Shown here: positions 11,878 through 60,646 of the stretch, piece by piece
How positions within the stretch are numbered: position 1 is the first letter of the stretch
Layout of the letters: each line of letters opens with the position of its first letter
Source: Atractiella rhizophila
Lineage: Eukaryota
Assembly (NCBI GenBank): GCA_021432655.1
Contig: MU271244.1
Span: 62,214-125,764, forward strand
DNA length: 63,551 nt
Reading direction: 5' to 3'
Translations under genes and position numbers: made by a program
The notes under the pieces: generated by a model
Seen by the model: the letters and a program-made list of their open reading frames with translations, nothing else
Told to the model about the DNA's origin: nothing
Database searches by the model: none

Positions 11878-12711
11878 TTAACCCAGAGAAGAAGCGGCGC
11901 TACCGAGGACTTTGAAAGCAAGATTCCTTAGAATCTCAGCCTTTTGGTCAGCACCAAGGTCCATGAAGACGTGATAGACCGCCTTCCCTTTGGCGTCTCT
12001 AATGGCTCCAAGCTTTGAACCGCCGTAACCGCCGACGGCAGCACCAGGCAGATTCCCCTAACAACGCCTGTTCAAATCGAGAAATCATAACAAGGAAAGG
12101 ACAAACCACAATAAACCCCATCACAGCTCCGGCTCCAGCACCAGCCCATGTCCAAAGCGGTACTCTGCTCTCCACTTCCGGACGCAACTAGAAACAGAAA
12201 CACACAATCCCTTAACAAGAACTCCCAAACACAAAGAGTGGAACCAACTCACCAGCTCCTCAAATACATCCCCAAATACAGAACCCGGATCTGGCCTTGG
12301 CTCATCTCTCACTTCCTCCTCAGCAGGATCCGCCGTGTCGTTACCAGCATAATTGAAGAATCGCTCAAAGTAGCTCTTGCTGCTCTCATCGGTCGTCGAA
12401 GCTCCGGAACTCATTCTTGTTCGGCGCAAACGATCGTAATTGGCTTTGCGCGTATCGTCGCTCAATACAAAGTAGGCATCAGCTATCTTCTGAAACTGTA
12501 CAGTGGCTTCCCGACGGCGCTGAGCGACGTTTGGTCCAGAGTTAATACGATCGGGGTGGTGGATGAGGGACAACCGCTTATATGAAGCCTTGATCTGGCT
12601 CTGGGTGGCGGAAGGAGAAATCTCGAGAATGGCCTGCAGGTCAAACGTCAGTCAATCAGCGAGCGACACAAGAACACAAGTCACGTAGTAATCAGGAAAA
12701 TCGTTGGCCAT
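11878..12711 (-). CDS. DnaJ-domain protein with C-terminal Gly-rich hydrophobic hairpin
   Basis: PDYY/AILEISPSATQSQIKASYKRLSLIHHPDR...FQKIADAYFVLSD; C-terminal WAGAGAGAVMGFIVANLPGAAVGGYGGSKLGAIRDAKGK. Confidence 0.9.
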
Positions 12712-13045
12712 GCTAGCAAAAGGATTAAGTAGGCGGCTTAGAGCTTCTCAGGGTGTTGAATTGCCCAAGCTGTTAAGGGATATAGGTACGAAGACGTGGA
12801 CGTTTTTGAAGACCTCCAGTCTGAAGTACGTCATAAATGAGTCACGATAAGGACATGCCGAGAGTACGTGCATACACGACGAGAACGCGAACATGAATTT
12901 CACGAACTTCGCGACGAAACAATTATAAAGAATTAGTTTACTACGACGGGCAGGATTCTATCGGTTTGTTAGGACAGCCATCGGGATTATTGTAAACTGG
13001 CAGGGCTAAGCGTGGTTAACCGGAGAGTGAAATTGGGGAGGAAAT

Positions 13046-14727
13046 ATGGAGCAATGTAGCAGGCTGACTTTCAGCCAGGGATTCATCCTCGGACAAGCAT
13101 CGATGTGAGCATTATTTCATACAGGATTTGAAAAGAGGGGTAATGAGAGGTTCAGCCTTATAATTGCCATTCTTTTTATTCGCTATGTAATTTTCGAATC
13201 GTCTACTTCTCAGAAACCGGCAGTCGTCAAGCCGGTCGCTGTCAAAGCCAGAACTTCTTCACGAAAAAAGCCACCTCCGACGCCTGTAATGCCTCCTCAT
13301 CTCAAACCGCTCTATCACCTGCCTTCATTTCCTTCACTTCTCCCTCCTCCCTCAAGTGAATCCACCACCTGGCTATCCTATCTCATCGCTCAGGCAGTTC
13401 TCTCCTACAGGCACCTGGTCTGGTCCTCTCCTGGGAAGGAGAATGGAGGGCGGGAATGGATAGAAGAGATTTTGAATAGAGGGAAGACGAATAATAGCAA
13501 TGCGGAAGACGGTTTCATCAGTCTCGACTAGATTTATGTGAAGGACGTAGAGTTAGGAGAGCGCACACCAAGGGTCACGGGAGCCAAAGTTGTTGACCGT
13601 GAAGAGAAGGATGGTCGAGTGGTGCGGTTCCTTGATTCTCCTCACCCCTTAACGGCGAACTGATGAAGGATACAGAAGGTAAATCTCTCCGTTACTTACC
13701 AAGATCGCGTCTCTATCTCGCTTGAAACGAAAGTTGTTATGAACTTCCCCCGCCCACGTTTCGCGGTACTTCCAGTCGAACTTTCTTTGAATCTTGTTGA
13801 ATTCCAAGGCGTGGTACGTCTACATATATCCTCTTAAGCAATAGTTAATGTCGTCAAAAGCTGTCTCTGGAAATCACTCCTCCAGATTCACCACTGACTG
13901 CGACTGTCTCTCCCACGAACGCGCCTACTCACATTGGACCGACTGTCAAAATCTCTCTTCTTCCCGATTTCCAACTCTCCCTCATCTCGCGAAGTTTACT
14001 CGGTAGTAAAGCCAAATTAATGGACATTCCGAAGGTCGAACAACTCATCGTTGGGCGAATACGTTCAGTTATTGTCGATCGGTATGCCAGGCTCATGTCC
14101 ACAAAATGTAGGCTGATTTGATGATGAAGGTATGTCAACTCGAGCATAACGATCGGTCTCCCTTTTCCAGCACCGCGATCACCACCTTCCTCATCTTCTT
14201 CAACCTCTTCAGACGAGGGAGATGAAGATCCTGTGCCCGAAAGTGACTATGTGATCATCCGCCCTCCTCCCTCACCACACCCTGAATCTGTCCCACCTTC
14301 AAGCGACGATGTCGAGGATTCTGGTTATCCGGAAGCCGATGTTGATCCCAGTCTGTACGAGTATAGCCCCGCGTTCTTAGGAGGAAGTGGACGCGTTGGT
14401 CTTGGTCTCGGAACAAGCCTTGGGATGACTTCCTCCCTTGCGAGTCTCGACAGTATCGGGGTTGGGAGAGGACCGTACAGAAGCAAAAGGATGAGCGGGG
14501 GTAACTTGGCAGCTAGCACACCCAACCTCTCCCTCACTCATAGAGGAAGAGAGAAGGAACGGGAGAGAGAGAAAGAGAGAGAGAAAGAACGGTTGGATGA
14601 GTTACGGTTGCCCGGTGAATATCACAGCCGAATTCTTCAACGATCGCCAGCTTCACAGGCGCGCACAGAAGAACTGCCTCAGGAACGTACTTGGACCGCG
14701 ACTGGGAGAGGCATTGGTATGCGATGA
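13046..14727 (+). CDS. MMM1: ERMES subunit Mmm1 (SMP domain) with in-frame TAG at 13529-13531; start approximate
   Basis: N-terminal anchor TFSQGFILGQAS..LFIRYVIF; ESTTWLSYLIAQ; VVMNFPRPRFAVLPVELSL; SLLGSKAKLMDIPKVEQLI; long Ser/Pro and REKE tail. GT-AG introns intact. Confidence 0.88.
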
Positions 14728-15140
14728 TAACCAGCGAGGACCGCGGCGGCTCGGGACCACACTTCGACCTTCTAATGTTTAAATTAATGATAATGTGTTC
14801 AATGAAAACACGACCCCCTGTTAGCTATTGTGGAGCCTTTTGTGCAATATATCCTACACCTAATACCCATCAAGCAGTGAAGCCCCACCTCAAGTTCTCC
14901 AGCTCCTCTTATTCTCAAAGGCATTTCCACTCCCCCTTTTCCCGTGCTCGCCTTCCTCGCGTGGGTCTTAGACAGTTTAGTTTTGTCTGGCCTAGAGACA
15001 TTGCAAGGTCATTTCGAATTTACGATTTTGAAATTTCCCCGGATTTTGGATTTGGGTGACAGAACAACTTGACGGGCTAACTCTGCCCTTAAATATCGCT
15101 TTAGAACTTATTGGAATCCTCCCCAAGCTCGTCAAAGAAC

Positions 15141-15983
15141 ATGGCTTCGCTTTCTACTCCCACCATCGAACCATCTCAGCCATATCCTTATGCTGTTCTA
15201 GATAAACATGCTAGAGAATCGCCTTCGCACCCAGCACTTTACTACGTTTCTACAAACCGAAAAGCGATTCAAAAAATTAGTTACGCCGAACTCTCAGAGA
15301 GAACGGAAAGAGCTGCGATTGTTTTTGGAGAACAATTGAAAGTTGGGAAGGGAGAAAGAGTCCTGGTGCAATTGCCTCGCGGAGTGGCTTGGTTCGAAGT
15401 CGTCTTGGGCCTGTTGCGCATCGGAGGGATTCCAATCCCTTGCACCACTCTGCTTTCATCCAAAGGTGAGCTTGAGTTGCTTCTCCACTCCGTCTGATAA
15501 CATCTGTGGCGCATGGCAGAGCTGGAATGCCGAGCGCAAGCTGCAAAATGTACCACCTTCGTCGGTTCTGCTTCAGCTGTCACCAAGTTCTTGCAAGTTA
15601 AAGAATCATGTCCTCTTGTTCGAAACGTCGTATTTGTGGCTGGAGATCCAGATCTCGAACCTCGTGATACCATTCCACAGGACAGCTTGAGGAAGCTAAT
15701 CATCTGGGAGCACGCCATGGCGAACATTCCACAGCATAAGAAGTGGGGCGGAGCTCGTCCAGAGATGTCGGATACTTCGATCATCTGTTTGATTTTCTTC
15801 GTCCATAACATCACGCTGTAATCATGTTACTGTAGATTTCACATCTGGAACGACCGGAAAGCCAAAGCGAGTTATTCACAACCACCGTCACCCTTTCGCG
15901 CATCGCCTCACAGGAGAATGGTACAATCTGGGTGACAACGCGCTCATTTGGGTCAATGTTTCTCGATTAGCGAAGAGTCTCGA
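15141..15983 (+). pseudogene. 3'-truncated copy of the acyl-CoA synthetase (duplication fragment)
   Basis: Near-identical to 17746-18588 including FTSGTTGKPK; breaks inside an intron at the duplication junction. Confidence 0.8.
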
Positions 15984-17332
15984 TATCTCATCGCTCAGGC
16001 AGTTCTCTCCTACAGGCACCTGGTCTGGTCCTCCCCTGGGAAGGAGAATGGAGGGCGGGAATGGATAGAAGAGATTTTGAATAGAGGGAAGACGAATAAT
16101 AGCAATGCGGAAGACGGTTTCATCAGTCTCGACTAGATTTATGTGAAGGACGTAGAGTTAGGAGAGCGCACACCAAGGGTCACGGGAGCCAAAGTTGTTG
16201 ACCGTGAAGAGAAGGATGGTCGAGTGGTGCGGTTCCTTGATTCTCCTCACCCCTTAACGGCGAACTGATGAAGGATACAGAAGGTAAATCTCTCCGTTAC
16301 TTACCAAGATCGCGTCTCTATCTCGCTTGAAACGAAAGTTGTTATGAACTTCCCCCGCCCACGTTTCGCGGTACTTCCAGTCGAACTTTCTTTGAATCTT
16401 GTTGAATTCCAAGGCGTGGTACGTCTACATATATCCTCTTAAGCAATAGTTAATGTCGTCAAAAGCTGTCTCTGGAAATCACTCCTCCAGATTCACCACT
16501 GACTGCGACTGTCTCCCCCACGAACGCGCCTACTCACATTGGACCGACTGTCAAAATCTCTCTGCTTCCCGATTTCCAACTCTCCCTCATCTCGCGAAGT
16601 TTACTCGGTAGCAAAGCCAAATTAATGGACATTCCGAAGGTCGAACAACTCATCGTTGGGCGAATACGTTCAGTTATTGTCGATCGGTATGCCAGGCTCA
16701 TGTCCACAAAATGTAGGCTGATTTGATGATGAAGGTATGTCAACTCGAGCATAACGATCGGTCTCCCTTTTCCAGCCCCGCGATCACCACCTTCCTCATC
16801 TTCTTCAACCTCTTCAGACGAGGGAGATGAAGATCATGTGCCCGAAAGTGACTATGTGATCATCCGCCCTCCTCCCTCACCACACCCTGAATCCGTCCCA
16901 CCTTCAAGCGACGACGTCGAGGATTCTGGTTATCCGGAAGCCGATGTTGATCCCAGTCTGTACGAGTATAGCCCCGCGTTCTTAGGAGGAAGTGGACGCG
17001 TTGGTCTTGGTCTCGGAACAAGCCTTGGGATGACTTCCTCCCTTGCGAGTCTCGACAGTATCGGGGTTGGGAGAGGACCGTACAGAAGCAAAAGGATGAG
17101 CGGGGGTAACTTGGCAGCTAGCACACCCAACCTCTCCCTCACTCATAGAGGAAGAGAGAAGGAACGGGAGAGAGAGAAAGAGAGAGAGAAAGAACGGTTG
17201 GATGAGTTACGGTTGCCCGGTGAATATCACAGCCGAATTCTTCAACGATCGCCAGCTTCACAGGCGCGCACAGAAGAACTGCCTCAGGAACGTACTTGGA
17301 CCGCGACTGGGAGAGGCATTGGTATGCGATGA
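15984..17332 (+). pseudogene. MMM1: 5'-truncated second copy of MMM1 (also has the TAG, 16134-16136)
   Basis: Starts at YLIAQAVLSY and lacks the promoter and TM anchor. Confidence 0.8.
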
Positions 17333-17745
17333 TAACCAGCGAGGACCGCGGCGGCTCGGGACCACACTTCGACCTTCTAATGTTTAAATTAATGATAATG
17401 TGTTCAATGAAAACACGACCCCCTGTTAGCTATTGTGGAGCCTTTTGTGCAATATATCCTACACCTAATACCCATCAAGCAGTGAAGCCCCACCTCAAGT
17501 TCTCCAGCTCCTCTTATTCTCAAAGGCATTTCCACTCCCCCTTTTCCCGTGCTCGCCTTCCTCGCGTGGGTCTTAGACAGTTTAGTTTTGTCTGGCCTAG
17601 AGACATTGCAAGGTCATTTCGAATTTACGATTTTGAAATTTCCCCGGATTTTGGATTTGGGTGACAGAACAACTTGACGGGCTAACTCTGCCCTTAAATA
17701 TCGCTTTAGAACTTATTGGAATCCTCCCCAAGCTCGTCAAAGAAC

Positions 17746-19728
17746 ATGGCTTCGCTTTCTACTCCCACCATCGAACCATCTCAGCCATATCCTTATGCTG
17801 TTCTAGATAAACATGCTAGAGAATCGCCTTCGCACCCAGCACTTTACTACGTTTCTACAAACCGAAAAGCGATTCAAAAAATTAGTTACGCCGAACTCTC
17901 AGAGAGAACGGAAAGAGCTGCGATTGTTTTTGGAGAACAATTGAAAGTTGGGAAGGGAGAAAGAGTCCTGGTGCAATTGCCTCGCGGAGTGGCTTGGTTC
18001 GAAGTCGTCTTGGGCCTGTTGCGCATCGGAGGGATTCCAATCCCTTGCACCACTCTGCTTTCATCCAAAGGTGAGCTTGAGTTGCTTCTCCACTCCGTCT
18101 GATAACATCTGTGGCACATGACAGAGCTGGAATACCGAGCGCAAGCTGCAAAATGTACCACCTTCGTCGGTTCTGCTTCAGCTGTCACCAAGTTCTTGCA
18201 AGTTAAAGAATCATGTCCTCTGGTTCGAAACGTCGTATTCGTGGCTGGAGATCCAGATCTCGAACCTCGTGATACCATTCCACAGGACAGCTTGAGGAAG
18301 CTAATCATCTGGGAGCACGCCATGGCGAACATTCCACAGCATAAGAAGTGGGGCGGAGCTCGTCCAGAGATGTCGGACACTTCAATCATCTGTTTGATTT
18401 TCTTCGTCCACAACATCACACTGTGATCATGTAGCGGCAGATTTCACATCTGGCACGACCGGGAAGCCAAAGCGAGTTATTCACAATCACCATCACCCTT
18501 TCGCACATCGCATCACAGGAGAATGGTACAATCTGGGTGACAACGCGCTCATTTGGGTCAATGTTTCTCCATTAGCGAAGAGTCTCGAATTCTCATAATT
18601 CTTACAGAACATTGGCGATCTCGGTTGGGCAAAAGCAGGATATAGCACCTTCGGCAGCCTCTATTTCAAAGCGACCATCTTCATCTTCTCACCACCAGCA
18701 CCGTCCGCATTCTCCGCCGAATTAACGCTTTCCCTCCTCCACGAGCACCCAATCACGAATATTTGCTTCCCACCGACCGTCTATCGGTCTCTCACGACCA
18801 CAGCCGCTGTTGAACAACTCAGAAGATGCCCTCCGAAAGCACTTCGATGGTGCAACGGAGCGGGTGAGCCGCTCAACCCAGAAGTGATCAAGATTTGGGA
18901 GCAGCACACTGGATTGATCGTTCGGGAAGCATTCGGGCAGACAGAGACGACTGCGCTTGTTGGGAATTTTCCCAAAGTTAACGTGAGGATGGGGAGCATG
19001 GGCATTGCTGCTGCTGGACTAGACGTCCAGGTTCTCGACACTGCTGGAAAGGTACTGGGACGAGGTCCGCAGAACGTAGGCTTCATCTGTGTCGAGGTAG
19101 CAAGAAGCAATGTGAAGGAAATTGGTGTCATAACACTTGGATATGAGGGCGAAAATGGCGAGTTGATGAACACATACATCGAAAGCGGAGATGGAAAGCA
19201 ATGGTACTCGACAGGCGATAAAGCCTGGCGAGATGAAGATGGTTATTTTTGGTTTATTGGGCGTGACGACGATAGTAGGTGATATATTCTCCTTCATGCA
19301 ATCACTGAAGAGCAGTTATTAGTCATTTCAAGCGCAGGATACCGAATTGGACCATTTGACGTTGAGAGCACCCTGAAGGAGCATCCGGCTGTCGTCGAGA
19401 GTGCTGCAGTTGCAAGTCCTGATCGTGAGCGAGGTTCGATCGTCAAAGCCTTCATCATTTTGTCACAAGAATTCAAGGCGAAGTTGATCAGCGGGGAAAT
19501 AACTGAAAGTGGGCTGAAGCAACAGCTGACAGAGTTCTCCCGTCCGCTTTTGACTTATAAATATCCTCGAGAGGTATGTTTGCTGTTCTTTTGAGAAACA
19601 AGTAGAGGCTGACGTCCCCCTAGATTGAGTTTGTTGACAGCCTCCCCTTGACGGTTAGCGGAAAGATTAGACGGGTGGAACTTAGAAAACTTGAAGAAAT
19701 GCGCAAGGGAACGAAAGGGAAGCTCTGA
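17746..19728 (+). CDS. AMP-binding acyl-CoA synthetase (medium-chain/ACSM-like)
   Basis: YFTSGTTGKPK, GDLGWAKA, GAGEPLNPEV, FGQTET, YSTGDKA..DEDGYFWFIGRDDD, GYRIGPFDVES, LPLTVSGKIRRVELR; ends KGKL*. Confidence 0.93.
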
Positions 19729-20066: not shown

Positions 20067-22566
20067 ATGCAGCCAACATTCACAGCTACCCCTCCGTCTA
20101 TAACAACGGCTCTTCCTGCAGCTTCAAACTCTACTCCTACAGCTAATGTCTCCTTCCCGGATACCTCAATTTTCAAGTCCATAGCCCAGAAGTCCTTGCT
20201 CGACCTCCTCGATCGCATTCCTGGGCCAAAGACTCTTCTACTGGATCCAGAACTCGCTGGACCACTCGGATTAGTGATTGAAATCTCGAATTTGCGTGTA
20301 AGTTTCTTCGAGAATGTGTTCGGCTGGTTTAAACTGGGGTAAAAGGCTCATGGAGTCGACCGCTTGTTTTGGCTCGAAGCAAACGATCTCAGCTCCGGTT
20401 CGAGCTGGAATGTTAATTTCCAGAGAAATCTGATATATGTCTGTCGACCCAAGAAGAAGCTCTTAACAATTATCGCAAGTGAGTGACAATTTGGCTCGGG
20501 CAATTGGGTTCGAATGAGGATTTAGACCAGATTCGTGCTTCACCTCCTAACCGTCATACCCATACCATCTTTGCCACACCACGTGTTACCTCTCTTTGCA
20601 AGACAACACTAGAAGACTTGGGTGTCTATGGCTCTATTGACCTCCATGAATTTCCTCTGGGATTGCTTACCCTTGAAAGAGACCTTTTGAGCATGGAGTT
20701 GGACACTTCCGTTTATCGGAAGATATTCCTAGTACGTTTCGTGGCACGCGGGTGCGTATACTCATCAGCACTAGGACAATGATTATGAGACGGTGTACGA
20801 TATGGGAAAATGCCTAATGACATTACAGCAGGCTTTTGGACCAATTCCTCGAATTCTGGGCTTAGGTGCAGCTTCGAAGGTAGGTTCACTCAACCGTCCA
20901 TAGTGGGTCAATCTGTTAACTTACGATCCAGCGTTTGGCTGCCCTGCTGAACCGCCTACGAGCTGAAGTACCCATTGATGAAGACGCTGGTGGATTCGGC
21001 TTAGGTTTAGGAAGCATAGATAGCATGATTCTTCTTGACCGGCAGGTCGACATGGTCACAACCCTTTGCACTCAGCTTACCTACTTGGGGCTGGTCGACG
21101 AGCTGTTGGGGATCAAGAACTGTTTGTTCCATCTCCTTTATCCATATCATCGTCATAAGCTGAGCGGCTGCTCGTTAGCGCACGTCGAAGTTGACCAGAA
21201 TCTCTTGAATCCGCCAACCCCATCCACATCTGCTTCTCCCGTCCCAAACGCCGCTTTTGGGTTTGGAGGAGTTCATCCCACCTCAACGCACCAGCCAGCT
21301 TTCACCGGACAGCCGCCACCCCGAAAGAAGCATTTGCTGTCATCTACGGCAGACTCGTTGTTTGCCGAGTTACGAGACCAAAACTTCATCGTTGTCGGAC
21401 CTCTCCTCAATCGCACCGCACGCAAATTGAATGAAGATTATGAGAAGCGGCACAAGGCGAGAAGCATTGGGGACTTGAGAGCTTTTGTTGGGCAGATGCC
21501 GGGATTAGCGGAAGAGCACGCTGCATTGCGCCTCCGTATGTAGACTTTTCTTATTAGCCAAGATGGAACTGACGTTGCCTGGCATAGATACTGGCCTTGC
21601 AGAGGAGATTATGTCGACGACATCATCGGAGGAGTTTGGTCAAATACTCGAAGTGCAACAAAGTGCGGCGCCCCATTCTCCAATCAAAGTTTGTATCCTG
21701 ATGACTGCCAGATCTTGTGGCTGGGTTGGAGCTCGCGACTCAAGAGAACACAATTCGAAACCTTATCAACCAAGAAGCTCCACTTCGAATAGTGCTTCGC
21801 CTCTTGTGTCTTTACAGTCTAGTGAACGGAGGACTTAAGCCGAAGACATTTGAAGACCTTAAGAAGGAATTGCTACAGGTTCGCTTGATTTTTGTGGTGC
21901 AATTGCTCCCATTAACAACACCTGCAGACATATGGCTACAATTACATTCCTGCGATGATATCCCTATCATCACTGGGCTTATTTTCCCGTCAGAGCTCTT
22001 CGTCCCGCTCTTCCTTCTCCGCCGTTCGGAAACCTCTTAAATTGATTGTCGATGAAGTCAACGAGCTCAATCCGGAAGATGCCGCATACGTTTTCTCTGG
22101 ATACTCCCCCTTGAGCGTTCGACTTGTGCAAGCTGCGTTTGGCAAGAACGGAACGTTTGTTGGATGGAAGGCAATCGAAGACCTCTTGAAGATCATGACG
22201 ACACCAGTGGTGGACGAGGTTCAAGAGAATCAAGCGACAGAAGCCAAGTCAAAGCGTCAGTACTTGCCTAGATGCTCCGCTCCGTAAAACTGACATGACA
22301 TGGCCTATCAGAATTGAGGACGTCACGTCAAACCCCAACCAGCGTCGTCTGTTTTATTGGTGGTGTAACCTTCGCAGAAGTATCCGCACTGCGCTTTTTG
22401 GGTCAACAAATAGGTAGTGCAATTTCTTTGGGCCGAATAATGCGATCCTCACGGCGTTCTAGGGAGAAATTTTGTCGTCATTACGACTGGTATGGTCAAC
22501 GGTAGCAGTCTCATAAATTCACTCACGTCTCCCTCCATCACACTCCCTTTAGCAACCCCATCGTAA
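20067..22566 (+). CDS. VPS33: Sec1/Munc18-family HOPS/CORVET subunit Vps33
   Basis: PGPKTLLLDPELAGPLGLV, LLDRQVDMVTTLCTQLTYLGLVDEL, LFAELRDQNF, VLRLLCLYSLVNGGLK, AYVFSGYSPLSVRLVQ, VCFIGGVTFAEVSALRFL. Confidence 0.93.
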
Positions 22567-23283
22567 TCATGATGGAATGGAAAATGTTTTTTGATGTGTG
22601 TCCGCTGATGGATGGAATCTCTCCATTAGTCTGTGAGTGCTCAAAGTTTGCTGAAATTTCCTGTCCGTTTCATATTCAGAATGCTGAAAGCTTCCCTCCT
22701 GCAAACACTGTATCAGTGCTAGATGAAAGTAAAAAGAATCCCAAACGGCCCCTGTTAGACGGGGAACAATATGTCGATGCCATCGGCGGCCCGTTCTCCT
22801 CACTTATGGGGTCCTGGAGTGCTTGAGACGGCCTCTCCCAGCTATTGACGGAGACAGGAAAAGCAAGCTGCACGCCGAACGGTCCCGTGGCGGAGAAGGA
22901 GTGGGTCTGCATCCAAACACTCGTGCAAGCCATCAGCAGTTGAGTCATTCAGTTTACAAGCTGGATGTTCAGCAATTGTGATCTTTCTTGATATGAGTCC
23001 TCTAAATCGAAGTTCGGAAGCTGACAAGCTGCTTACTCACATTTTGTCCTGCCACCGACGTATATTCCGAGTCTCTTTCCTTCTCTCTATATTTTTCGCT
23101 GACACCCGTGGCTTTCGCGTCCCTCTGCGTCCATGGCAGAGAAGGCGGTTCCCCCCCTTTTGTTTGAACAGTGCTGTCAATTGCGGTACCTGATTGAGAT
23201 ATATAAGGGTCTCCATTCTCCTCAGTCCCAGTAATCTTGCCCCACTGAGACTTAACGGTGAAGGATTGTAGAAACAAAAAAAG

Positions 23284-24496
23284 ATGTCGCGCACTCATCA
23301 AGCCATCGTTCATACTACCATTCCGACTGTCATTCCCACTCCCGCTCCTATAGAGCTACGTTCTCTTCCTACCCCCCAACCGGGAAGGGACGAAGTGCTC
23401 ATCCGCGTGCGGTATGCTGCCATCTCTCCAGTGTATATTTGGCATGGGGATTGGGGTTTATTGTTCACCAAAGTCCCCACTGTCATGGGGAACACTTGGT
23501 CGGGTGTGGTGGAGGAACTGGGGGAAGGAGTGGATGGGTTGGAGAAAGGAGAGCTAGTGCAAGGGTTCCAGTTTGGCGCGCTTGAGGGACACTGTTTTCA
23601 AGAGTTCCTGGTTGCTAACAAGCATAATTTCGGAAAGGTTTGTGTTTCCATCCCACCATAGCAGTGTCCGTCCCTGAGAGGTGATTTTAGCTGCCGAAAC
23701 ACATCTCGCTGGCTCAAGGTGCTACCATTGGGGACAATCTCGTCACAGCCTTTAACACGCTCTTCACTGAACTTGCGCTTCCCCTCCCTTCCAACCTGAC
23801 ACCTCCTCTTCCACCAACTCCGACAAATGTGGATCAAAACAGAACCCCTATCCTTATATGGGGTGCCAGCGCGTCAACCGGTCAATACCTCATCCAACTC
23901 CTCCGATACGCTGGATACACCAATATTCTAGCCACTTCTTCGCCTTCACACCATCCCCTTCTGAAAAGCTTCGGCGCAGCCGAGTGTCTGGATTATCGCT
24001 CTCCGAGCGTTTTAGAGGAAATTGGAGCCTGGGCGAAGAAGAGTGGAGGCTTCAAGGTCGTAGTTGACTGCATAGGGAGTGAAGAGGGTAGCGTCAAGCC
24101 CCTCGCGAGCATTGTCAATACGCCAGGTGCCAAAGTCGCGATTATGCTCCCAGTCGTGAAGAAGGAAACATTGTCGTTGACGGTCGAACAGCAGTTCAAG
24201 GAAGGAGTAGAAGTGATTGGTATTCGGACGCACTTTTGGCAACGAGTACGTCGTCACCCTGTCCCTCTTCAAATCTTTTGGCTTATCATACATTGGCGTT
24301 ACAGAACGAACTATTCAAAACGAAGTTGCAGACAGAGATCATCCCATGGGTCCTTGAGAAAGGTATTGTAAAGGCAAACGATGTCGTGGAAGTAGAAGGC
24401 GAAGATATGTTGGCGCGGGCTTCGAAAGCTTTAGATCTAGTGAGGAGGCAGCAGCTAAGCGGGAAAAGAGCGGTTTTTGAGGTCTCTAAGCTCTGA
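23284..24496 (+). CDS. MDR-superfamily enoyl-reductase-like oxidoreductase, C-terminal SKL
   Basis: PQPGRDEVLIRVRYAA, GNTWSGVVEELGEGV, PILIWGASASTGQYLIQL, FGAAECLDYRSP; ends EVSKL*. Confidence 0.88.
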
Positions 24497-25261
24497 ACGA
24501 GTGCGGTGATATGGGAAGTATAGCAGACGTTCAATACCTATCAGTTATAATTATCTGTAACTGCAATCATGCGACCTTGGATTGTGACTTGTTTGCACCA
24601 CACATGTAATCAAGCGAAGAAAAGATGAAGTTGGTTGGAAATCCCACTTTCTCAATTCTGATTCGGACAGTTACGAAGTGTCTATGTTACATCCCCATGC
24701 TAGCTGTTTTCTACCATCCTCCTTCAGGTTCAAGCCCAAAAAGTCTTTTCTCTTAACGCAGCCTTGGATATTTGTCTGCGATTCTACAGTCAAGAGGCAG
24801 CGGCTTCGAAATCCCTCAAGCTGAAACCGAGCTGTAGAAGATCATGGTTGCTTCAAGATGGATGAGTTCCGCGCGAACATCGGTAAGTATTCTGCCCTCG
24901 AGCTAAAGCCAATGCAAAAGGAACTTGACTGCCTCGCACTACCTTAATCGGGCATCATGCTATTGACCGATATCGTCAGCCTCAGCCTGCCAGGGCTCGG
25001 CTGTAACTGTCGGCAATAGGTGACAATTGTAACCGGCGCGAGGAGGTCTTTCCGGTTCGCGCAGACCTGCTTCTCCTTACTCATCCTTGTTCACCTGGAG
25101 TTTTCATCGAGAAAGCCAGGGAGACCCCTACGATCGCGATCGAGCTACACCGACTAAACGCCATTCGCTTTCTCTCCATGCCAAAGCAGGATTATTCAGC
25201 AATGTCTACAAAAGGCAGCCAGAGCACGTCTCCATGCTTCAAACACCTCCAACTTTAAGAA

Positions 25262-26691
<1,430 letters not shown>

Positions 26692-35965: not shown

Positions 35966-38872
35966 ATGGACTCCTCCAATTTTCTGGCACAGATTAACGA
36001 GGCTTGTTCAGGTTGGCGCGTGCCTTTCTCAACATGATGCAAGCTTATGAAGCGGTGTCTTTTCAGAACTCAATGAAGGGGAATTGATTATTGATCCATC
36101 TCTGACTTTGTGGGACATCCTCTCGGCTACTCAGGTACGTTCTGGTCAATCCCTGAGCGTTCCCCCTTGAACATGCTCACTTTGACCAGATTGACGAACC
36201 AAGGATGGATAGCGGCACAGCACCTTCAAAAGTGATGACAGTGACGAATCCAAGATTCTCCGATGCTAGTAAGAGGCATGAACACTCGTCAACCTCCAAG
36301 GAAAATGTGGAATTCAATCCTTTGCGACTCTGGTCACTCGAGGAACTGCTTTGGATGATCGATAGGTTGATAGTTTGTGAGGTGGGTTCTCGATCTGGAC
36401 AAGAAAGTCACAATAAGAAGAACAGCTAGATGGCTTTCCATAGTGGAGAAGCGCTGTACACCACCGTTTTCATTTGCCATTACGTGTTTCGACTGCGCGA
36501 CATTTCGGTACCAGCTTTGAAGGAGCGGTATCAAGAACAAGACCCGAAGACTGATGAGCGGATTATGCTCCTGGGGATCGTCTTTAGAAGTTATCTTGCT
36601 GCTTTTATCAGATGCGTCGGTCTGGCATTTGTCGAGATGTCAAAAGGCAAAATATACGATGTACGTTCAGCGTTTCTCATACTCATGGATATTCCGATGA
36701 TAAATGAATATCCAGATCGAGGATTGGCATGCCTCTGATTCTGGTGTCCGCTTTGATGAGCTTGATCCAATCGTTCATGATCCTTCTCATCCTAACGAAG
36801 AAGCCATCGAGCGAGAGCAAAGGGTTGTTCGTGCTCTTTCGCAAAATTTGGACACGGCCCTGGAATGGCTTGAGCAGCGATTAAAGGAGAAGAGTGGGAC
36901 GGACACCTTTCTTCTACTTCAACTCAAAAGTCGCTTGGGCTTACGGAAGGTACGCCCTTTGTTTTTTGGGAAAGGATTGTGATGTAATGTCGCGACAGCA
37001 ACTTCTCAGCCTTTTCTACTTCGCCTCCCAGCCACAAAGATCGCTTCCGAACTCATTCGTGGCGTCTCTTTCATTAGCTCGCTCGTGTTTAACTTCCAAC
37101 ATCTATTCTCCCGAATACTCTGGGTCAAGACCGTCGAACTGGACGTCAGCCGACATCGATCCACCTCGAAGCCTTGACGGCACAGCTGAAGTTTTTGATC
37201 CGCTCCTCTGTCGCTTGTTACCAACGCAAAACGCACCTCGAAAATGTAACGTCCTCACACAAACAATACCTCAGGCGTATGTTACCCTGCAGAAACTTCT
37301 AGATGGGTTTGAGAATCTACAAGCGCTTTGGTTGTCTGCGAACCTGCGACATGTTTTTCTAGGTCGTTTGGGTCCAACAGCTAAGGATAGCATAGTTGTT
37401 CGGGAAGGCATTAGCTATCGCTCTGCGGATGTAGATTTTGCCAACAAAGCGAGTCCGAGTGTGACAGGCAACCAGGACAGAGAAGTGGGATGGGCAGAAT
37501 GGTTCTCGTATTTTCAGGTCTCGTCATGGAGAGAACATCCGGCGCTGGCTTTCATCAGGTCGACTCAGTTGGTTTGTGTCTAGATTTTTATTGGAAAAGA
37601 AACGTGCTGAAACAATTGAAGTCTTTTCTGGACTCGGACGGATCTTTTTTGGGGACGCTTAGCAAAGTCGACTTGCTCGAACTCCTACTTGTTGACTTTA
37701 CAGGTCTACACCTTCGAACCCTGCTCTCTGAATTCTATATGGAGCACTGGAGCGAGACAGTGGATTCAATCATTAAAGACCTCGCAGATGTCAGTACCAA
37801 CCGCAGCTCCTAGCTTAATTAACCAGTCGATAAATTAGCTTGCCGTCATATACCTTGGAAATATGTGCCACAACCGACCACGGCAGAGGCGGAAATACAT
37901 AAACGATGTCCCAGGCTTAGCCAACATCCTTGAGCTAGTCCGTCACTCATCCGTCGTCCTAAACGAAAATCTAATTTACAACAGACCAGTCGACTCCCTA
38001 GCGTGATCGTCCAGGATGTGCGGCGCATGGGATACGGCCTTGTCAGTGTTTGTATATGTGGTTATGTGTCGCTAAGACGTCTACCTTTTTCCTTCAGCAT
38101 CCCACAGCCATCTCCCTTTTACAGCTCATACCTACTACAGTTTCCCTCGTCGATGTGACGGTTTGCACAGAGATCGTGTTGAGTGGTTTTGAGCTAGATC
38201 TCTATGGGCCGTCCGAACTTCGATCCAACTTTTGGGCTGCTAGCCATCTCTTACAGATAAAAGCAGCATATCTTGATACTTTATTGGCTGAGACTGCTAG
38301 TATGTTCTCCCGAGTCTTTGTCTACTGGCTGACAAGACGATGAAGGACTTTCCTCCTCTCCTCACACAAACTTCTTGCGATATCGAAAACAACTCACCAC
38401 TTTCCTACAACTAATGACTAAGGCGGCTTTCTCTGTACGTGCGACGCTTTGCCTGTTTCGAAGCACAACCTCAAGCGTCTTCATCAGATCACATTCTTAT
38501 TGTCAGAATATGATGCGCCGTTGACTCAACGCGGACAAGACATCTTCCACCGCAGGTTCAAATGGGCATCAGCTTACAAAGAAACTACGAATCACTTCAA
38601 TGTCTCTTCTGCATGGGAACTATACCAGAAGGCGGCTCAAAAAGAGAAGTCGCGGAAGGTTCGCTCTACCTGCCTCAACCCCCAGCTGATATGAACCATT
38701 TTTCCAGAGGGAAGAAGTTCGCGATCAGGCGATAGCGGACATCGAAAGCTGTCTCGCCATCTGCGACCAAATCGCCATCCTCTCACCCCAGGAAACTTGC
38801 ACCGTAATCCTCCATCCGTCCGAACAGGGGACAGTTAGTACTCTCCCCATCTTGAAATCCTCAGTCTCATAG
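35966..38872 (+). CDS. MAK10: NatC N-acetyltransferase auxiliary subunit Mak10/NAA35
   Basis: EACSELNEGELII..TLWDILSATQIDEPRMDSG; DRLIVCE/MAFHSGEALYTTVFICHY; VLSGFELDLYGPSELRSNFW. Confidence 0.8.
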
Positions 38873-44286: not shown

Positions 44287-46203
44287 ATGGGACAGGACGA
44301 GCACTCGCAAGGTGCAGAACCGGACGTTAGCATTCAGGAAGTGCCGTTTAGAGAGGGAGAGAGGAAGTTTAGAGTCCTTACCTTCAACTGTTGGTGTGTT
44401 TCACGTTCAAACCCATCCGTGTACCATCTTCTGTTTTCAGCAGTTTTTTCTTTTCCTGCCAACCGATTATCTGGCGTACCGTGTCACGAGCAAGCTGTTG
44501 ACTGTGGCTGCTCACTTCCCTGTCGTAGGAGGAGAACAAGTTGACTTGACGTGCAAATCTGACAGTGCGGAAACTGACTGCCCTCAATAGGGGATTGAAA
44601 TATGTCTCTCGCCAGCGTCGTCAACGGATACACGCAATAGCAGAATACATCGTCTCTTCTTCTTCTGCTAATGCCTCGTCACGGCCGTCGCATTCTACTT
44701 CTTCAGGTTCAGGTTCCGCTGCAGTAATAGATGAGGGAGACGGTGGATATGACCTCGTCGCCTTGCAGGAACTCTGGTGCGAGGAGGACTGGTTGACAAT
44801 ATCTACTCGGGCCAAATCCGTTGGCTTGAAACATGGGCGATGGTTCTACAGGTTCGTTGTGCAGCTGCTTGGAATATGGAATATGGATTGACTGCTTTCG
44901 CTTAAAGTGGTGCTCTTGGTTCAGGTCTCGCAATATTGACTCGTCATCGTCTGCTCTCATCGTCCATCCTCTCTTATCCTCTCAACGGTAACCCCCTCCA
45001 TGTCGCAGAAGGAGATTGGCATGTTGGAAAAGCGGCAGGTTCGGTCATTATTTCGCTGGACATCCCATCCCCTTCTTCCTCTACTTCGAAAGGGGAAAGC
45101 ACCAAGGTGGAGCTTGAATTGATCAATACACACTTTTATGCGCCTCATGGAGACGAAGGTGCACACGTGGAGGAGTGGAAGCGAGCGCATCGGATAGCAC
45201 AGTGTTGGGAACTGGGCAAAATCGTGCGATCTGCCTCTGAACGGGGTAGAGGCGTGATCGTTGTACGTCTATCTTCTCCCCTATGTCCTTCGACGATTGA
45301 TACTCATCGTATTCTGGTCTCTCAAAGACTGGAGACCTCAATTCGCCTCCACATTCACACGTCATCCGCTTCCTCCTCGCCCACGGCCACCTCTCTGATT
45401 CCTTCCCCGTCCTAAACCCCCAAGCTCCCCATCCCTCACGCTCTTCCTCCGAAGCCGTCCGTCTAAACGGCGTAACTTGCGACTCCCCCTTGAACTCGTT
45501 TAGTCGGTATAAGGTCTTTCCAGAGTGGGTTAGGAAGGAGGGAGGCAAGAGATTGGACTATGTCCTCTTTCGCAATTCAGGCTTGTTCGTGCCCAAGGAA
45601 GAGACGAGGAAGGACGTGGTCGGAAGCGTGAACCTGGAACCGAAATGGACCAAGGTGGTGCTCACCGAACCTGTTCCGGGGACGGGGGGCATGAGTTATT
45701 CAGACCATTTCGGCGTCGAGGTAGTATTTGGGGTCTCGCTTCTCACGACTTCAGCAAGCTCGACAAAGCCTTCCTTCCCAGGAGGTGAAGCTGTTCCATC
45801 CTCCGAGCCTCTCTCAGGACCAGGTCGACCCTCTGCCCTCACACCCGAACTGATGAGCACCTCCTTGAACGCTCTCGCCAGATCCTTCTCTTCCTCCTCA
45901 AAGGCTGCAAACACCCAGATGTCCCTCTTCTACCTTGCTATTGTATCCATCCCCCTCGTCGCCATAGCCGCCTCCTTCCAGCCTAACAAAGCCTTCAACT
46001 GGCTATTTGTACTCGTTGGTGTCGGAATAGGATGGGGAGGAACAACGATGCTTTATGCGGGCTTCATCGGAGGAAGGTGGGAGAGGAGAGCGCTGAGAAA
46101 CGTCATTGCTGAGATGGAAATTGAAAGAGAGAGGCTGTGGGTGGCTAGGGAAGAGGAAGAGGAAGATGGTAGATTCAGTTTTGAGCCGAGAATTTGGGGT
46201 TGA
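44287..46203 (+). CDS. ISC1: Inositol phosphosphingolipid phospholipase C (neutral sphingomyelinase family)
   Basis: RVLTFNCWGLKYVS, YDLVALQELW, SGLAILTR, GDWHVGK, NTHFYA, GDLNS, TCDSPLNS, GKRLDYV, SYSDHFGVE; two C-terminal TM helices. Confidence 0.92.
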
Positions 46204-46481
46204 GGGAATAATAATGCTGAACTCTTGCGCATTCGCGAATAACATATCGTAAATGCGAGCGAAGCTCATGCTTCCCATGATTGCAGTCTGAGTAGTGTCC
46301 TCAGTGATACTGGTGCGGAGGAAGAGGAAGATGGTAGATTCAGTTTTGAACCGAGAATTTGGGGGTGAGGGAATAATAATGCTGAACTCTTGCGCATCCG
46401 CGAATAACATATCGTAAATGCGAGCGAAGCTCATGCTTCCCATGAATGCAGTCCAAGTAGTGTCCTCAGTGATACTGGTGC
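46153..46481 (+). repeat. Tandem duplication with 165-bp period at the ISC1 3' end
   Basis: 46153-46316 vs 46318-46481, about 6 mismatches. Confidence 0.95.
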
Positions 46482-48188: not shown

Positions 48189-49111
48189 GACGCGTCTTCA
48201 CATGAAATTGAGCGTCTTTTTCGGATGATTTCTGAGCGCAGCTTTCATGCTCAACAAACTCTTTACGCGCATTTACTGACACCTCCCAGCCTCTGTGCTC
48301 CCATTACTCTAAGAGAGAACAATCATTCTGTGAATAGCAAAAAGCCCAACATACACCTATGACTCTACAGTATTTGCCCAGAAGGCAAGATCTCAACTTT
48401 GTTGGTTGCCACCAAATCTGGCCAAACCATCGCCTTGGACCCAAGTTACCCAGAGCCAGAGCCATTGAGCAGGAGCAAGAATTGGAGGGCAGAGCGCCTG
48501 AATCCAAGCTACTATGTCCCAACCAACCACCCGCTCCCGCCCCTCGAACTACTCTTCAAGCAACCCCCCTCGTCCGACCGTTCCACTTTCGAACGGTTCT
48601 TCAAAAAATCAAAGTTGTGACGGTGACGGGACGGGTGGCCAAAAATGCCGTCCGTCCCGGACCCGTCACCCGTCTTGACGGCGACGGTGCAAAGCCCTAG
48701 CGACGCGTCTTCACATGAAATTGAGCGTCTTTTTCGGATGATTTCTGAGCGCAGCTTTCATGCTCAAACTCTTTACGCGCATTACTGACACCTCCCAGCC
48801 TCTGTGCTCCCATTACTCTAAGAGAGAATCAATCTTTCTGTTAACAGCAAAAAGCTCAACATACACCTATGACTCTACAGTATTTGCCCAGAAGGCAAGA
48901 TCTCAACTTTGTTGGTTGCCACCAAATCTGGCCAAACCATCGCCTTGGACGCAAGTTACCCAGAGCCAGAGCCATTGAGCAGGAGCAGCATTGAAAGGCA
49001 GAGCACCTGAATCCAAGCTACTATGTCCCAACCAACCACCCGCTCCCGCCCCTCGAACTACTCTTCAAGCAACCCACCTCGTCCGACCGTTCCACTTTCA
49101 AACGGTTCTTC
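48189..49111 (+). repeat. Direct duplication of ~410 bp (48189-48602 / 48702-49111) covering the EXO84 promoter and first ~29 codons
   Basis: Colinear copies with substitutions and small indels, separated by a ~99-bp spacer. Confidence 0.95.
48603..48699 (-). mobile_element. Probable hAT-type DNA transposon/MITE end fragment
   Basis: Minus-strand terminus TAGGGCTTTGCAC followed by nine GACGG/CCGTC subterminal repeats in ~70 bp; no partner end or target-site duplication found. Confidence 0.5.
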
Positions 49112-51607
49112 CTCCACACGCCGCGAAGTGGACTCCCAACCGCAACCAGCACGTCCACGGCGAGACGACCGTCGTCGCGAACCGTCATCGAATGCCATCC
49201 CCGCGGCCATTCCGAGACCTCAAAACCCGTCCAAGATCGGTGCTGCCCTCCTCAAGAAGAGACAGTCAGTCTCGTATGGCAACACCTTCAATTTGCCCGA
49301 TTTTCGATCAGGAGCTGGAGGGAACGTTCCCGTGCCTGATGTACCCAGGGAGTTCCTCGAGAGCCTGGAGGGCGTGAGACCTGGAATCACTAGACAGGTG
49401 CTTGGAACCTCGCCGGCGATGGAGCAGAGGAAGGTGCAGATTGATACGGATGCGTTGGCGGCGGATGGGTTCAATGCAGACGATTGTGCGTTCTGCCTTT
49501 TCTTCCTGAGAAGGCTGGAAAATTGACAAGAATTGCAGTTCTGAGGAGGTATCTCCCTAACGCTTCGGAGGCACAGGTTCAGAACTTGAGGATGTTCAAG
49601 GCGAGCCTGAAGGAAGAAGCGGAGAAGACTTCTCAAGAGATGCAGAAGACCGTTTTCAAGTTCGCCCTTTACGTTCCAATGAGAGGGTTCAATGTTTGAC
49701 CTTACTGCTTTACAGGAACTATTCCGAATTCGTGACGATATCGAAAGAGATCTCCACGCTCGAAAATGACGTTTTAGAGCTCAAAAGTGTGCTTGAAGAG
49801 TGGAAAAAGATTCCGGAGAGTCTTTCAGAGATAGGGAGCGAATTCGAAGAGATGGAATCGAGCATGAACGGTGAGTTAGTTCACTTCCACTTCCACTTCC
49901 AACAACCTTCTCCTCTGACTGACTAATGGACACGCCCGAGCAGATCGACGTTCGAACCGCAACTCCATAGGCGATCTCGCAGCCTTGTACCGCTCGCAAC
50001 TCTCTGCGCTCTGGTCCGGCGTAGAAGGTTCTCAGCGTTTCCTCCCGCCTCTACCTGGCAGGCATCTCATCGCCGAATCGCCTGGTTTCATCGAGCTCAA
50101 TTCGGCCACTTACCGTCCCAAACAGGGTGTCCACCTCTTCTTGCTCAATGACGCCTTGCTCGTAGCGGTAAAGAAGAGGGCGGCTGCTGGTGGAGAGGGC
50201 AGAGGCAAACTGGTCGCGGATCGCTGCTTTGATCTAGCGGATATAATGGTGACAGATATGAAAGATGGAGGCAGTCAGTTTCTCTTCTTTCCTATACTGG
50301 ATGGATGCACCTCATTGTCTTTCCTAGGTTTGACCAACGCTTTGAAAATTAAACAGGGAAGAGAGGTGTTCATCTATCGCACAGAAAAAGCCGAGGAGAA
50401 AAGAGCCCTCTTGTTGGCTTTCAAGAAGGTTGCAGAAGAGCTTATGAACAAGAAACGGAAGGACAATATTGGAAGTAGCTACTCTGGAGTCAAAACCGAT
50501 TTAAGGGGCAGAGGGGAAGGCAAAGATATTGAGAGAGGAGTGCTGGAAATAGGCAAACAGTTGGGATATGAAGGGGAGACATGGATTGATGATTTGGGTC
50601 ATGAGTTGGAGGTTAAGGTGAAATTGCGGGAGTGGGACGATGCAGTTGATGTCATTGAAGCTTGCAAGTTCCTCGGTGCCTTTCTGATAGTTCCTAAACA
50701 GATCTGTAGGCAAATCCGTCAATCCCCAGCTGTCCGCTATCTCCTCGACATCTTCCAACCAGCTCCGCACAGCGATAGCTCCTCTAGTGACGCTCCTGAC
50801 CTCTTCCATCCTCGACGCTCTCGGTCAGCCATACATCCATCGTCCTCAAGTCGTCTCCTATGTTTCCCTCCTCCTCCGCCTCGGACAGGCGGAGAAGGCG
50901 CGCGAAACCTTTCTCAAGAACCGCGGGGACATGGTAAGGAAGCGAGCACGGGGAGTGAAGTGGGTCGCGAGCGGACCAAGGATTGGTAGCGATCACGCTG
51001 CACCTGGTGGAGGCATCAAGCATTATGTGGCGGAACTGGCCATGGTTTGGATGGGGATGGTGAAGAATACTGGAGAGTGGTACCTCACCGCTTTCAAGGA
51101 TCATCGGATGGCAAGTGGTGTGTCAAACAGTTCTTTGTTGCCTGTCGATGTCGTAACTGAGAAGACGACTTTGAGGCAGGGTTCGTGAAATGGGCATCAC
51201 AGCAGATGGAACTCTTCTCTGAGATGTTCAGGAGGCAAGTTTACGGTATTGGAGGGGAGGACAACAGTAAAATTGTGGAGGAGTGCATTGAGATTGCAAT
51301 GACCCATTCAATCACTGTAAGCACTCCTTGTCGAGTTTCGGAAGGACCCTGTGATTGGTGTTCATGGTTTCCATCGTGGAAGCTTCGAGATGTGGGTTTA
51401 GACTTCACCTTCCTCCTCAACTCTCTCCTTCGTACTCCAATTCACCGCCGTCGTTCCTTCTCAGGCACCTCAAGCGCGATGGAGAAGCAGCCGTCAAGGT
51501 CCAAAGACGACTCGTCTCTTCTTAATGTCAATTCTGCCAACTTCAAGAGAATTTCGGCGCTCGAATTACAGAAGGAAGTTCGCGAGAAGTTGAAGTCTCC
51601 ACGATGA
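49023..51607 (+). CDS. EXO84: Exocyst component Exo84
   Basis: KIGAALLKKRQSVSY, NYSEFVTISKEISTLENDVLELK, LYRSQLSALWSGVEGSQRFLP..GRHLIAE, PH-like HLFLLNDALLVA, VSLLLRLGQAEKARETFL, LRDVGLDFTFLL. Confidence 0.92.
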
Positions 51608-52003
51608 AGGCTTTGGAAGTGGAATGATACCCCAAGTCACCTGCAAACAACATGTAGATTGTTTCACAGCTGTTTTATGTTTGGAAATGCATGCAAGTTT
51701 GTGCGACAATTGAAGAAAGATCGCTTGCCTTGTGAAACCCTTCGAGACCGATTCGGACCTCCAGCGCACCTTATAAACAAACGAAGCTTCATGGGACGTG
51801 CATGACTTTATCAGAGTCGTGCGCCATTTGCGACATAGTGGGAGAAAGTGAAACTTGAGCGGAACCTAGTCTATGCTGATCGAACAAAACAAGAGGGTGA
51901 ACAAAATCGCTGCCGCAACAACCAAGTGCGATCATTGGAATCACCTCCCAGAGCATTAAAAACTTTTCAACACCTTCGATACCTCCATCCCAACAACGTC
52001 ATC

Positions 52004-53986
<1,983 letters not shown>

Positions 53987-60621: not shown

Positions 60622-60646
60622 NNNNNNNNNNNNNNNNNNNNNNNNN
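60622..60646. other. Assembly gap (25 N)
   Basis: Run of 25 n. Confidence 1.

Follow-up and report, generated by a model that had tools for sequence, protein, structure and literature searches.

An in-frame TAG in MMM1 of Atractiella rhizophila: most likely a mutant or mis-assembled copy within a tandem duplication, not a new way of decoding

Null alleles of MMM1, which encodes a subunit of the ERMES complex, are expected to be costly, as are ERMES mutations in yeasts and moulds. The textbook case of a disabling mutation that moves between adjacent gene copies is that of CYP21A2 and CYP21A1P in humans, in which gene conversion between a gene and its tandem truncated copy transfers the mutation. 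A different situation has been described in filamentous ascomycetes, where A-to-I editing corrects premature UAG/UGA codons: in the 'pseudogenes' of Fusarium graminearum, a genomic TAG in a conserved gene is read as UGG in the RNA (PMC10776026, PMC11156358). In ascomycetes, such editing favours hairpin loops and is confined to sexual development (PMC11156358, PMC10776026). For basidiomycetes, a paper of 2026 claims A-to-I changes, stop-to-Trp among them, in Microbotryum, which like A. rhizophila belongs to the Pucciniomycotina, and remarks that earlier reports from basidiomycetes have commanded limited confidence (PMC13608869).

The window analysed here, that is the whole 63,551-nucleotide stretch of the assembly of Atractiella rhizophila, a fungus of the Atractiellomycetes (Pucciniomycotina) that lives in roots, contains an MMM1 gene with an in-frame stop codon and a second, incomplete copy of the same gene. 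The main features of the gene are as follows:

13046..14727, + strand: MMM1 gene (ERMES subunit, SMP domain), five exons, TGA stop
13046-13104, 13156-13621, 13676-13813, 13861-14081 and 14130-14727, + strand: MMM1 exons, from translation, with RNA-confirmed introns
13529..13531, + strand: in-frame TAG, codon 145, first strand region of the SMP domain (..GFISLD-TAG-IYVKDVELG..)
16134..16136, + strand: second TAG, in the 5'-truncated second MMM1 copy

The coding sequence of 1482 nt (493 codons) is open in translation apart from codon 145, and 348 open codons lie 3' of the TAG. Four runs were compared over 12950-16050: one of DNA (X1), two public ones of RNA in the form of assembled contigs (X3 and X4), and one of raw RNA reads (X24), none of which aligned, so that X24 carries no weight either way. 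All four introns were found as GT..AG joints in the spliced X3 and X4 contigs. Since these contigs skip exactly the four predicted introns, the gene model holds, and so does the view taken in an earlier, sequence-only reading of this DNA that the gene is intact outside the stop. Membership in the SMP family PF10296 was found both with the family model and with the solved structure of an Mmm1 SMP domain: exons 3 and 4 matched the Pfam MMM1 model (E 1.3e-9 and 1.8e-8), exon 2 with the TAG set to X gave a match that spans codon 145 at E 0.0028, below the Pfam cut-off, and a profile built from the query and 19 homologues matched 5yk6 with an E-value of 9.9e-45. Like Mmm1, the ER-anchored SMP-domain subunit of ERMES (PDB 5yk6/5yk7), the predicted product has an N-terminal anchor with a ..TF(S/T)QG..GQ.. 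motif and an SMP domain collinear with 5yk6, and it has the NFPRPRFAVLP and SLLGS(K/R)AKL motifs in common with the 19 homologues. In contrast to known Mmm1 proteins, its exon 2 is merely 25-34% identical to the homologues found and a stop stands at codon 145 in the assembly, so that an uninterrupted full-length frame is absent from the assembly (TAG) and present in the X3 and X4 RNA contigs (UGG). Towards the 3' end of the gene, a GA-rich simple repeat (14554-14599) codes for an (E/R/K)-rich stretch, REKEREREKEREKER, in the disordered C-terminal part of Mmm1. This repeat was skipped in read placement, which may explain the loss of a long X1 contig over MMM1.

The position of the TAG within the SMP domain, and its recurrence in the second copy, agree with what the sequence-only reading had described. 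The local sequence GGT TTC ATC AGT CTC GAC TAG ATT TAT GTG recurs with the TAG at 16134-16136, and both the homologue alignment and the profile match to 5yk6 place codon 145 in the LD-x-I-x-V strand. Its column is variable among the 19 Mmm1 homologues, being occupied by R (8), Y (5), A (2), W (2), M (1) and F (1).

Searches with MMM1 exon queries revealed no Atractiella Mmm1 protein among the longer proteins or in a representative library, where short gene models could escape. Exon 2 had a single match among the longer proteins (Rhodosporidiobolus, 46% identity) and exon 5 had none, while the representative library yielded 19 matches, the best at 30-45% identity and none from Atractiella-level relatives. 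The Vps33 of A. rhizophila is present in the same protein database that yields no Atractiella Mmm1; its exon ORF at 20920-21540 is identical to the NCBI protein at all 181 aligned exon residues, barring one residue at each in-frame intron edge and one at the ORF start. To judge from these matches, Mmm1 is apparently missing from the regular protein annotation of this species. An exact 27-mer with R at codon 145 had no match in environmental DNA, a protein-guided scan of metagenome contigs confirmed none, and a PDB search by single exon returned spurious designed-repeat matches only. The accessible text of PMC13347111 calls the Atractiella genome unpublished, and nothing on the ploidy or nuclear state of the sequenced culture was found in that portion.

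A J-domain gene (DnaJ-like, with an HPD motif recognised by eye) lies head-to-head with MMM1 at 12300-12713 on the - strand. The following neighbours were recognised by Pfam, all with short introns of about 50 nt, either in-frame or out-of-frame:

1-618: Rpb1 fragment, RNA polymerase
20067-22563: Vps33 (Sec1 family)
23194-26183: zinc-type alcohol dehydrogenases
36157-37600: Mak10/NatC subunit
49510-51835: Exo84
52479-53800: GDP-mannose 4,6-dehydratase

Every ORF of the window in which one type of stop is flanked on both sides by 40 or more open codons was scanned against Pfam with that stop read through. Only one of the 43 TAG ORFs had a Pfam match across the stop, and that one is MMM1; the Mak10, Sec1 and GDP-mannose dehydratase matches end at TAG. 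A global reassignment of TAG was rejected on this count, in line with the sequence-only reading, whose supporting example was misplaced: it had put the end of MAK10 at 58361, when the Mak10 match actually lies at about 36.2-36.7 kb and the ORF with a TAG end at 58359-58361 falls outside the Pfam-scanned set. Two matches crossed the stop among 54 TAA ORFs (AMP-binding at about 18596, and Sec1), and both correspond to in-frame introns, as seen from a loose end in X3 and from the annotated protein, respectively; Vps33 ends in TAA. Among 93 TGA ORFs, matches were found for Rpb1, with separate stretches on each side of the stop, and for GDP-mannose dehydratase, with one stretch across it in which the protein is about 19 residues longer than the matched profile. 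We infer that these two cases are also in-frame introns. With introns set aside, unexplained in-frame stops within the Pfam matches of the window amount to 1/43 for TAG, 0/54 for TAA and 0/93 for TGA, and the consensus is therefore generally clean, with no stop codon reassigned.

The two copies of MMM1, presented in the sequence-only reading as diverged copies, do both carry the TAG, but they belong to a 2605-bp tandem duplication whose second copy is 5'-truncated:

13379..15983, + strand: duplication unit 1, running from mid-exon 2 of MMM1 through the end of that gene and the intergenic stretch into the 5' portion of an AMP-binding gene
15984..18588, + strand: duplication unit 2, with a truncated MMM1 and then the beginning of the complete AMP-binding gene, which extends past 18588
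13430..13910, + strand: difference-free tract of 481 nt, holding the TAG and a whole intron
14311-15510, + strand: second difference-free tract, 1200 nt

The units are about 99% identical, with 29 differences and no indel. The left breakpoint falls in MMM1 exon 2 and the right one in an intron of the AMP-binding enzyme gene, which is recognised by Pfam, has an in-frame intron and shows a loose end of X3 at 15951. Within the window, a full-length MMM1 occurs in unit 1 only, where the AMP-binding gene is 3'-truncated; the MMM1 of unit 2 begins inside exon 2 and is without promoter, exon 1 and membrane anchor. The differences are unevenly spread, with 21 of the 29 in 15511-15965 (about 4.6%), where the truncated AMP-binding fragment of unit 1 is compared with the complete gene, and a gap of at least 1200 nt was obtained in none of 100000 random placements of the unit differences. 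This patchy identity suggests gene conversion, and the 481-nt tract around the TAG points to a recent conversion or to homogenisation of the consensus, either of which would make the TAG common to both units without its being old. RIP-like hypermutation was rejected: a count by eye gives 20 transitions and 9 transversions, lying in mixed contexts, and not C-to-T and G-to-A changes only. Small tandem duplications recur across the window, with further local direct repeats at 46153-46481 (165-bp period, 96% identity) and at 48320-48987 (158-nt copies 510 nt apart, 97% identity). Two runs of exactly 25 N (862-886 and 60622-60646) are assembly gaps or masked stretches.

RNA covering the stop reads a different base from the assembly. 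At 13530, X3 carries G in one contig at a depth of 454.1 out of 454.1, 73 letters from the contig end, and X4 carries G in one contig at 5.77 out of 5.77, 91 letters from its end, so codon 145 is UGG (Trp) in both RNA runs that cover the site. The contigs run unspliced through this codon (13458-13620 in X3 and 13284-13620 in X4), which rules out a cryptic intron over the TAG and upholds the earlier statement that no intron removes it. Around the TAG, 88 frame-preserving GT/GC..AG pairs can be drawn; 27 of them span no more than 120 nt, and these have poor donors throughout, such as GTTTCA, GTCTCG and GCAATG. The sequence-only reading had proposed looking for G at 13530 in RNA; the G is there in two of two runs, but the X3 and X4 contigs are not the window's haplotypes. 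The A at 13530 is known from the assembly and the G from the RNA of other haplotypes, and X1 has zero depth over 13470-14821, a gap that proves nothing because some records were filtered out. An edited and an allelic G are thus indistinguishable at this site.

The MMM1 contig of X3 differs from unit 1 at 12 positions in 1261 nt, at least nine of them other than A>G; among the 11 listed are two A>G changes (13530 and 14729), four T>C and two T>G, with a single case each of A>C, C>G and C>T. It has the unit-2 state at 13911, 13959, 14007, 14172 and 14289 and the unit-1 state at 14310 and apparently also at 14231, and it differs from both units at 14523, 14718, 14729, 14731 and 14799. X4 has T at 13959 and C at 14310, with variants of its own at 13893, 13989 and 14016; of the changes listed for it, those other than A>G lie at 13893 (A>T), 13989 (G>A) and 14523 (C>G) and at six of the sites where the copies differ. 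Both runs show the copy-2 state at 13911, 14007, 14172 and 14289 and conflict at 13959 and 14310, so these two copy differences are standing polymorphisms. Given the many differences from both copies that are not A>G, X3 and X4 derive from haplotypes or strains other than that of the window, as a third and a fourth haplotype. The X3 variants at 15073, 15124 and 15284, in the neighbouring AMP-binding gene, also occur in the DNA run X1 and are therefore genomic. Within exon 2, position 13530 is the sole difference from the window over 337 nt in X4 and 163 nt in X3. In the unique 5' part (12996-13330), 284 nt of X3 match the window exactly, and X1 departs from it at 13212; X3 may thus be the assembled strain itself, in which case the contrast between RNA and DNA would require a second allele or editing.

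Two contigs have unexpected structures. One X3 RNA contig holds 13301-13487, within MMM1 exon 2, between flanks of 24 and 255 letters that are foreign to the window; it may stem from a chimeric transcript or a diverged paralogue, or be an artefact of the contig. One X1 DNA contig joins sequence resembling 12576-12603, with one mismatch just upstream, directly to 13379, which is the exact left breakpoint of the duplication, yet the join is not the junction of the assembly. This join (12576-12606 to 13379) could be a 770-bp deletion allele that lacks the 5' half of MMM1 together with the first part of the upstream J-domain gene, or it could be a further copy of the unit. At 15392-15584 and 15743-15917, X1 contains at least two sequence variants, hence extra copies or alleles in at least that DNA sample. 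Taken together, the odd X1 and X3 contigs suggest that the locus has more forms than the assembly shows.

The sequence-only reading had drawn an argument for purifying selection from the substitutions downstream of the TAG. The MMM1 copies differ by seven synonymous changes and one non-synonymous change, and the reported ratio of 6:1 downstream of the TAG was reproduced; at least six synonymous changes out of seven are expected with a probability of about 0.002 under random placement within the same transition/transversion classes. With X3 and X4 used to polarise the differences, four changes belong to unit 1 alone, which holds the full-length MMM1, and all four are synonymous; the synonymous differences at 13959 and 14310 are polymorphisms that also occur among the RNA haplotypes. 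The excess is thus real, but as evidence of selection past the stop it is weakened by the 481-nt difference-free tract around the TAG: if that tract was homogenised, the synonymous differences may predate the TAG.

Overall, the TAG is most likely a mutant or mis-assembled copy and not a new way of decoding. We give about an even chance to a real G-to-A nonsense allele, common to both units through a short conversion tract, with intact TGG alleles elsewhere. The haplotype of the assembly would have undergone a G-to-A substitution that turned a TGG Trp codon into TAG, the codon not being recoded, and other haplotypes or strains would have kept TGG and would express a normally spliced MMM1 mRNA. 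The TAG would have been copied between the units by a conversion tract of at most about 480 nt (13430-13910), or would be older than the homogenisation of that tract, and the downstream synonymous differences would be older variation from a time when MMM1 was intact, two of them still segregating among the RNA haplotypes. Survival of the strain would rest on a second intact allele in another nucleus or homologue, possibly a TGG allele in the same culture, or on a loss of ERMES that is tolerated in culture. In favour of a nonsense allele are the UGG of both RNA runs, the standing of X3 and X4 as further haplotypes, the clustering of the unit differences, the lack of other unexplained in-frame stops in the domains of the window, the extra copies or alleles in X1, and the occurrence of W in 2 of the 19 Mmm1 homologues at that column. 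Against it, a null MMM1 would be expected to be costly, neither 13530 nor 16135 is covered by a DNA read from the assembled strain, X3 may be that strain, the protein searches, which short gene models could escape, gave no intact second MMM1, and the derived changes of unit 1 are all synonymous (4/4), as expected if the gene were still under selection. The locus resembles CYP21A2/CYP21A1P in its adjacent units of about 99% identity, one functional and one truncated, and in its patchy identity tracts, with the disabling change shared inside one of them; unlike in the human case, a transfer here is putative, in its direction and timing too, and homogenisation of the consensus would leave the same picture.

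We consider it unlikely, though less so than editing or readthrough, that the stop in the full-length gene arose in assembly or polishing. An A that is real in one unit or haplotype would then have been written into both, most plausibly from unit 2, which is truncated and unconstrained, and the full-length MMM1 would carry TGG, as the UGG of the RNA would have it. The 481-nt tract is otherwise identical between the units, so that short reads cannot be assigned to either. The 15983/15984 junction is not among the X1 contig rows listed, and since X1 shows a different junction at the same left breakpoint, the local assembly structure is uncertain; the window also contains two 25-N gaps and two other local direct repeats. 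However, substitution errors are rare in a finished consensus, the conserved domains of the window hold no other in-frame stop, and the 29 unit differences were kept in the assembly, so the units were not simply collapsed.

Restorative A-to-I editing, by which a UAG truly encoded in the genome of this and other strains would become UIG and be read as UGG (Trp), apparently not only in sexual tissue, is decidedly unlikely, and more doubtful still is its strongest form, in which the UAG is kept in MMM1 and near-complete editing restores Trp outside the sexual stage. As in the Fusarium graminearum work (PMC10776026, PMC11156358), a genomic TAG in a conserved gene is matched by UGG in RNA, the base at -1 is U and that at +1 is G, as at ascomycete sites (PMC11156358), and the edited state would be the residue found in other haplotypes. 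The A of the assembly, present in both units, against G in two of two RNA runs, the restored residue occurring in relatives, the 6:1 synonymous excess and the isolation of 13530 as the sole exon 2 difference in both contigs are what editing would predict, and stop-to-Trp changes are claimed for Microbotryum (PMC13608869). Unlike in the ascomycete work, the contrast in the window is not drawn within one strain, and the host is a basidiomycete of the Pucciniomycotina; the many differences other than A>G mark the RNA contigs as other haplotypes. The G stands at full contig depth in an apparently high-depth (X3) and a low-depth sample (X4) with no known link to a sexual stage, to which ascomycete editing is confined (PMC10776026, PMC11156358). 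Of the ascomycete signature, the U at -1 is there, as in any UAG, but in a predicted fold of 13490-13570 the A is base-paired, in both the minimum-energy and the centroid structure, and lies outside any hairpin loop (z -0.61; 45 of 200 shuffles fold as well).

Known leaky stop contexts include C at +4 and the CARYYA motif. Readthrough or near-cognate decoding of a genuine UAG, giving a low level of full-length Mmm1, as the sequence-only reading had also proposed, is highly improbable and found no support: the 348 open codons and the synonymous excess downstream would fit it, but the only mRNAs seen, none of them from the assembled haplotype, carry UGG in both runs and make readthrough needless in those samples, the 3' context UAG-AUU-UAU is unlike these, there is no notable local structure, and no TAG is read through inside other Pfam matches of the window.

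If editing were true, basidiomycetes would have their first solid case of restorative mRNA editing, and it would act on a core ER-mitochondria tether. Purifying selection on the frame downstream of the TAG would then be explained, restorative A-to-I editing would no longer be limited to ascomycetes or to sexual tissue, and the search for the responsible basidiomycete deaminase would have one site that is simple to assay. If the ordinary reading of a mutant or mis-assembled copy is true, the reference carries a disabled or mis-polished MMM1 within a 2.6-kb tandem duplication, which would explain the absence of an Atractiella Mmm1 from protein-database matches, and MMM1 should not be scored as lost here in comparative ERMES work.
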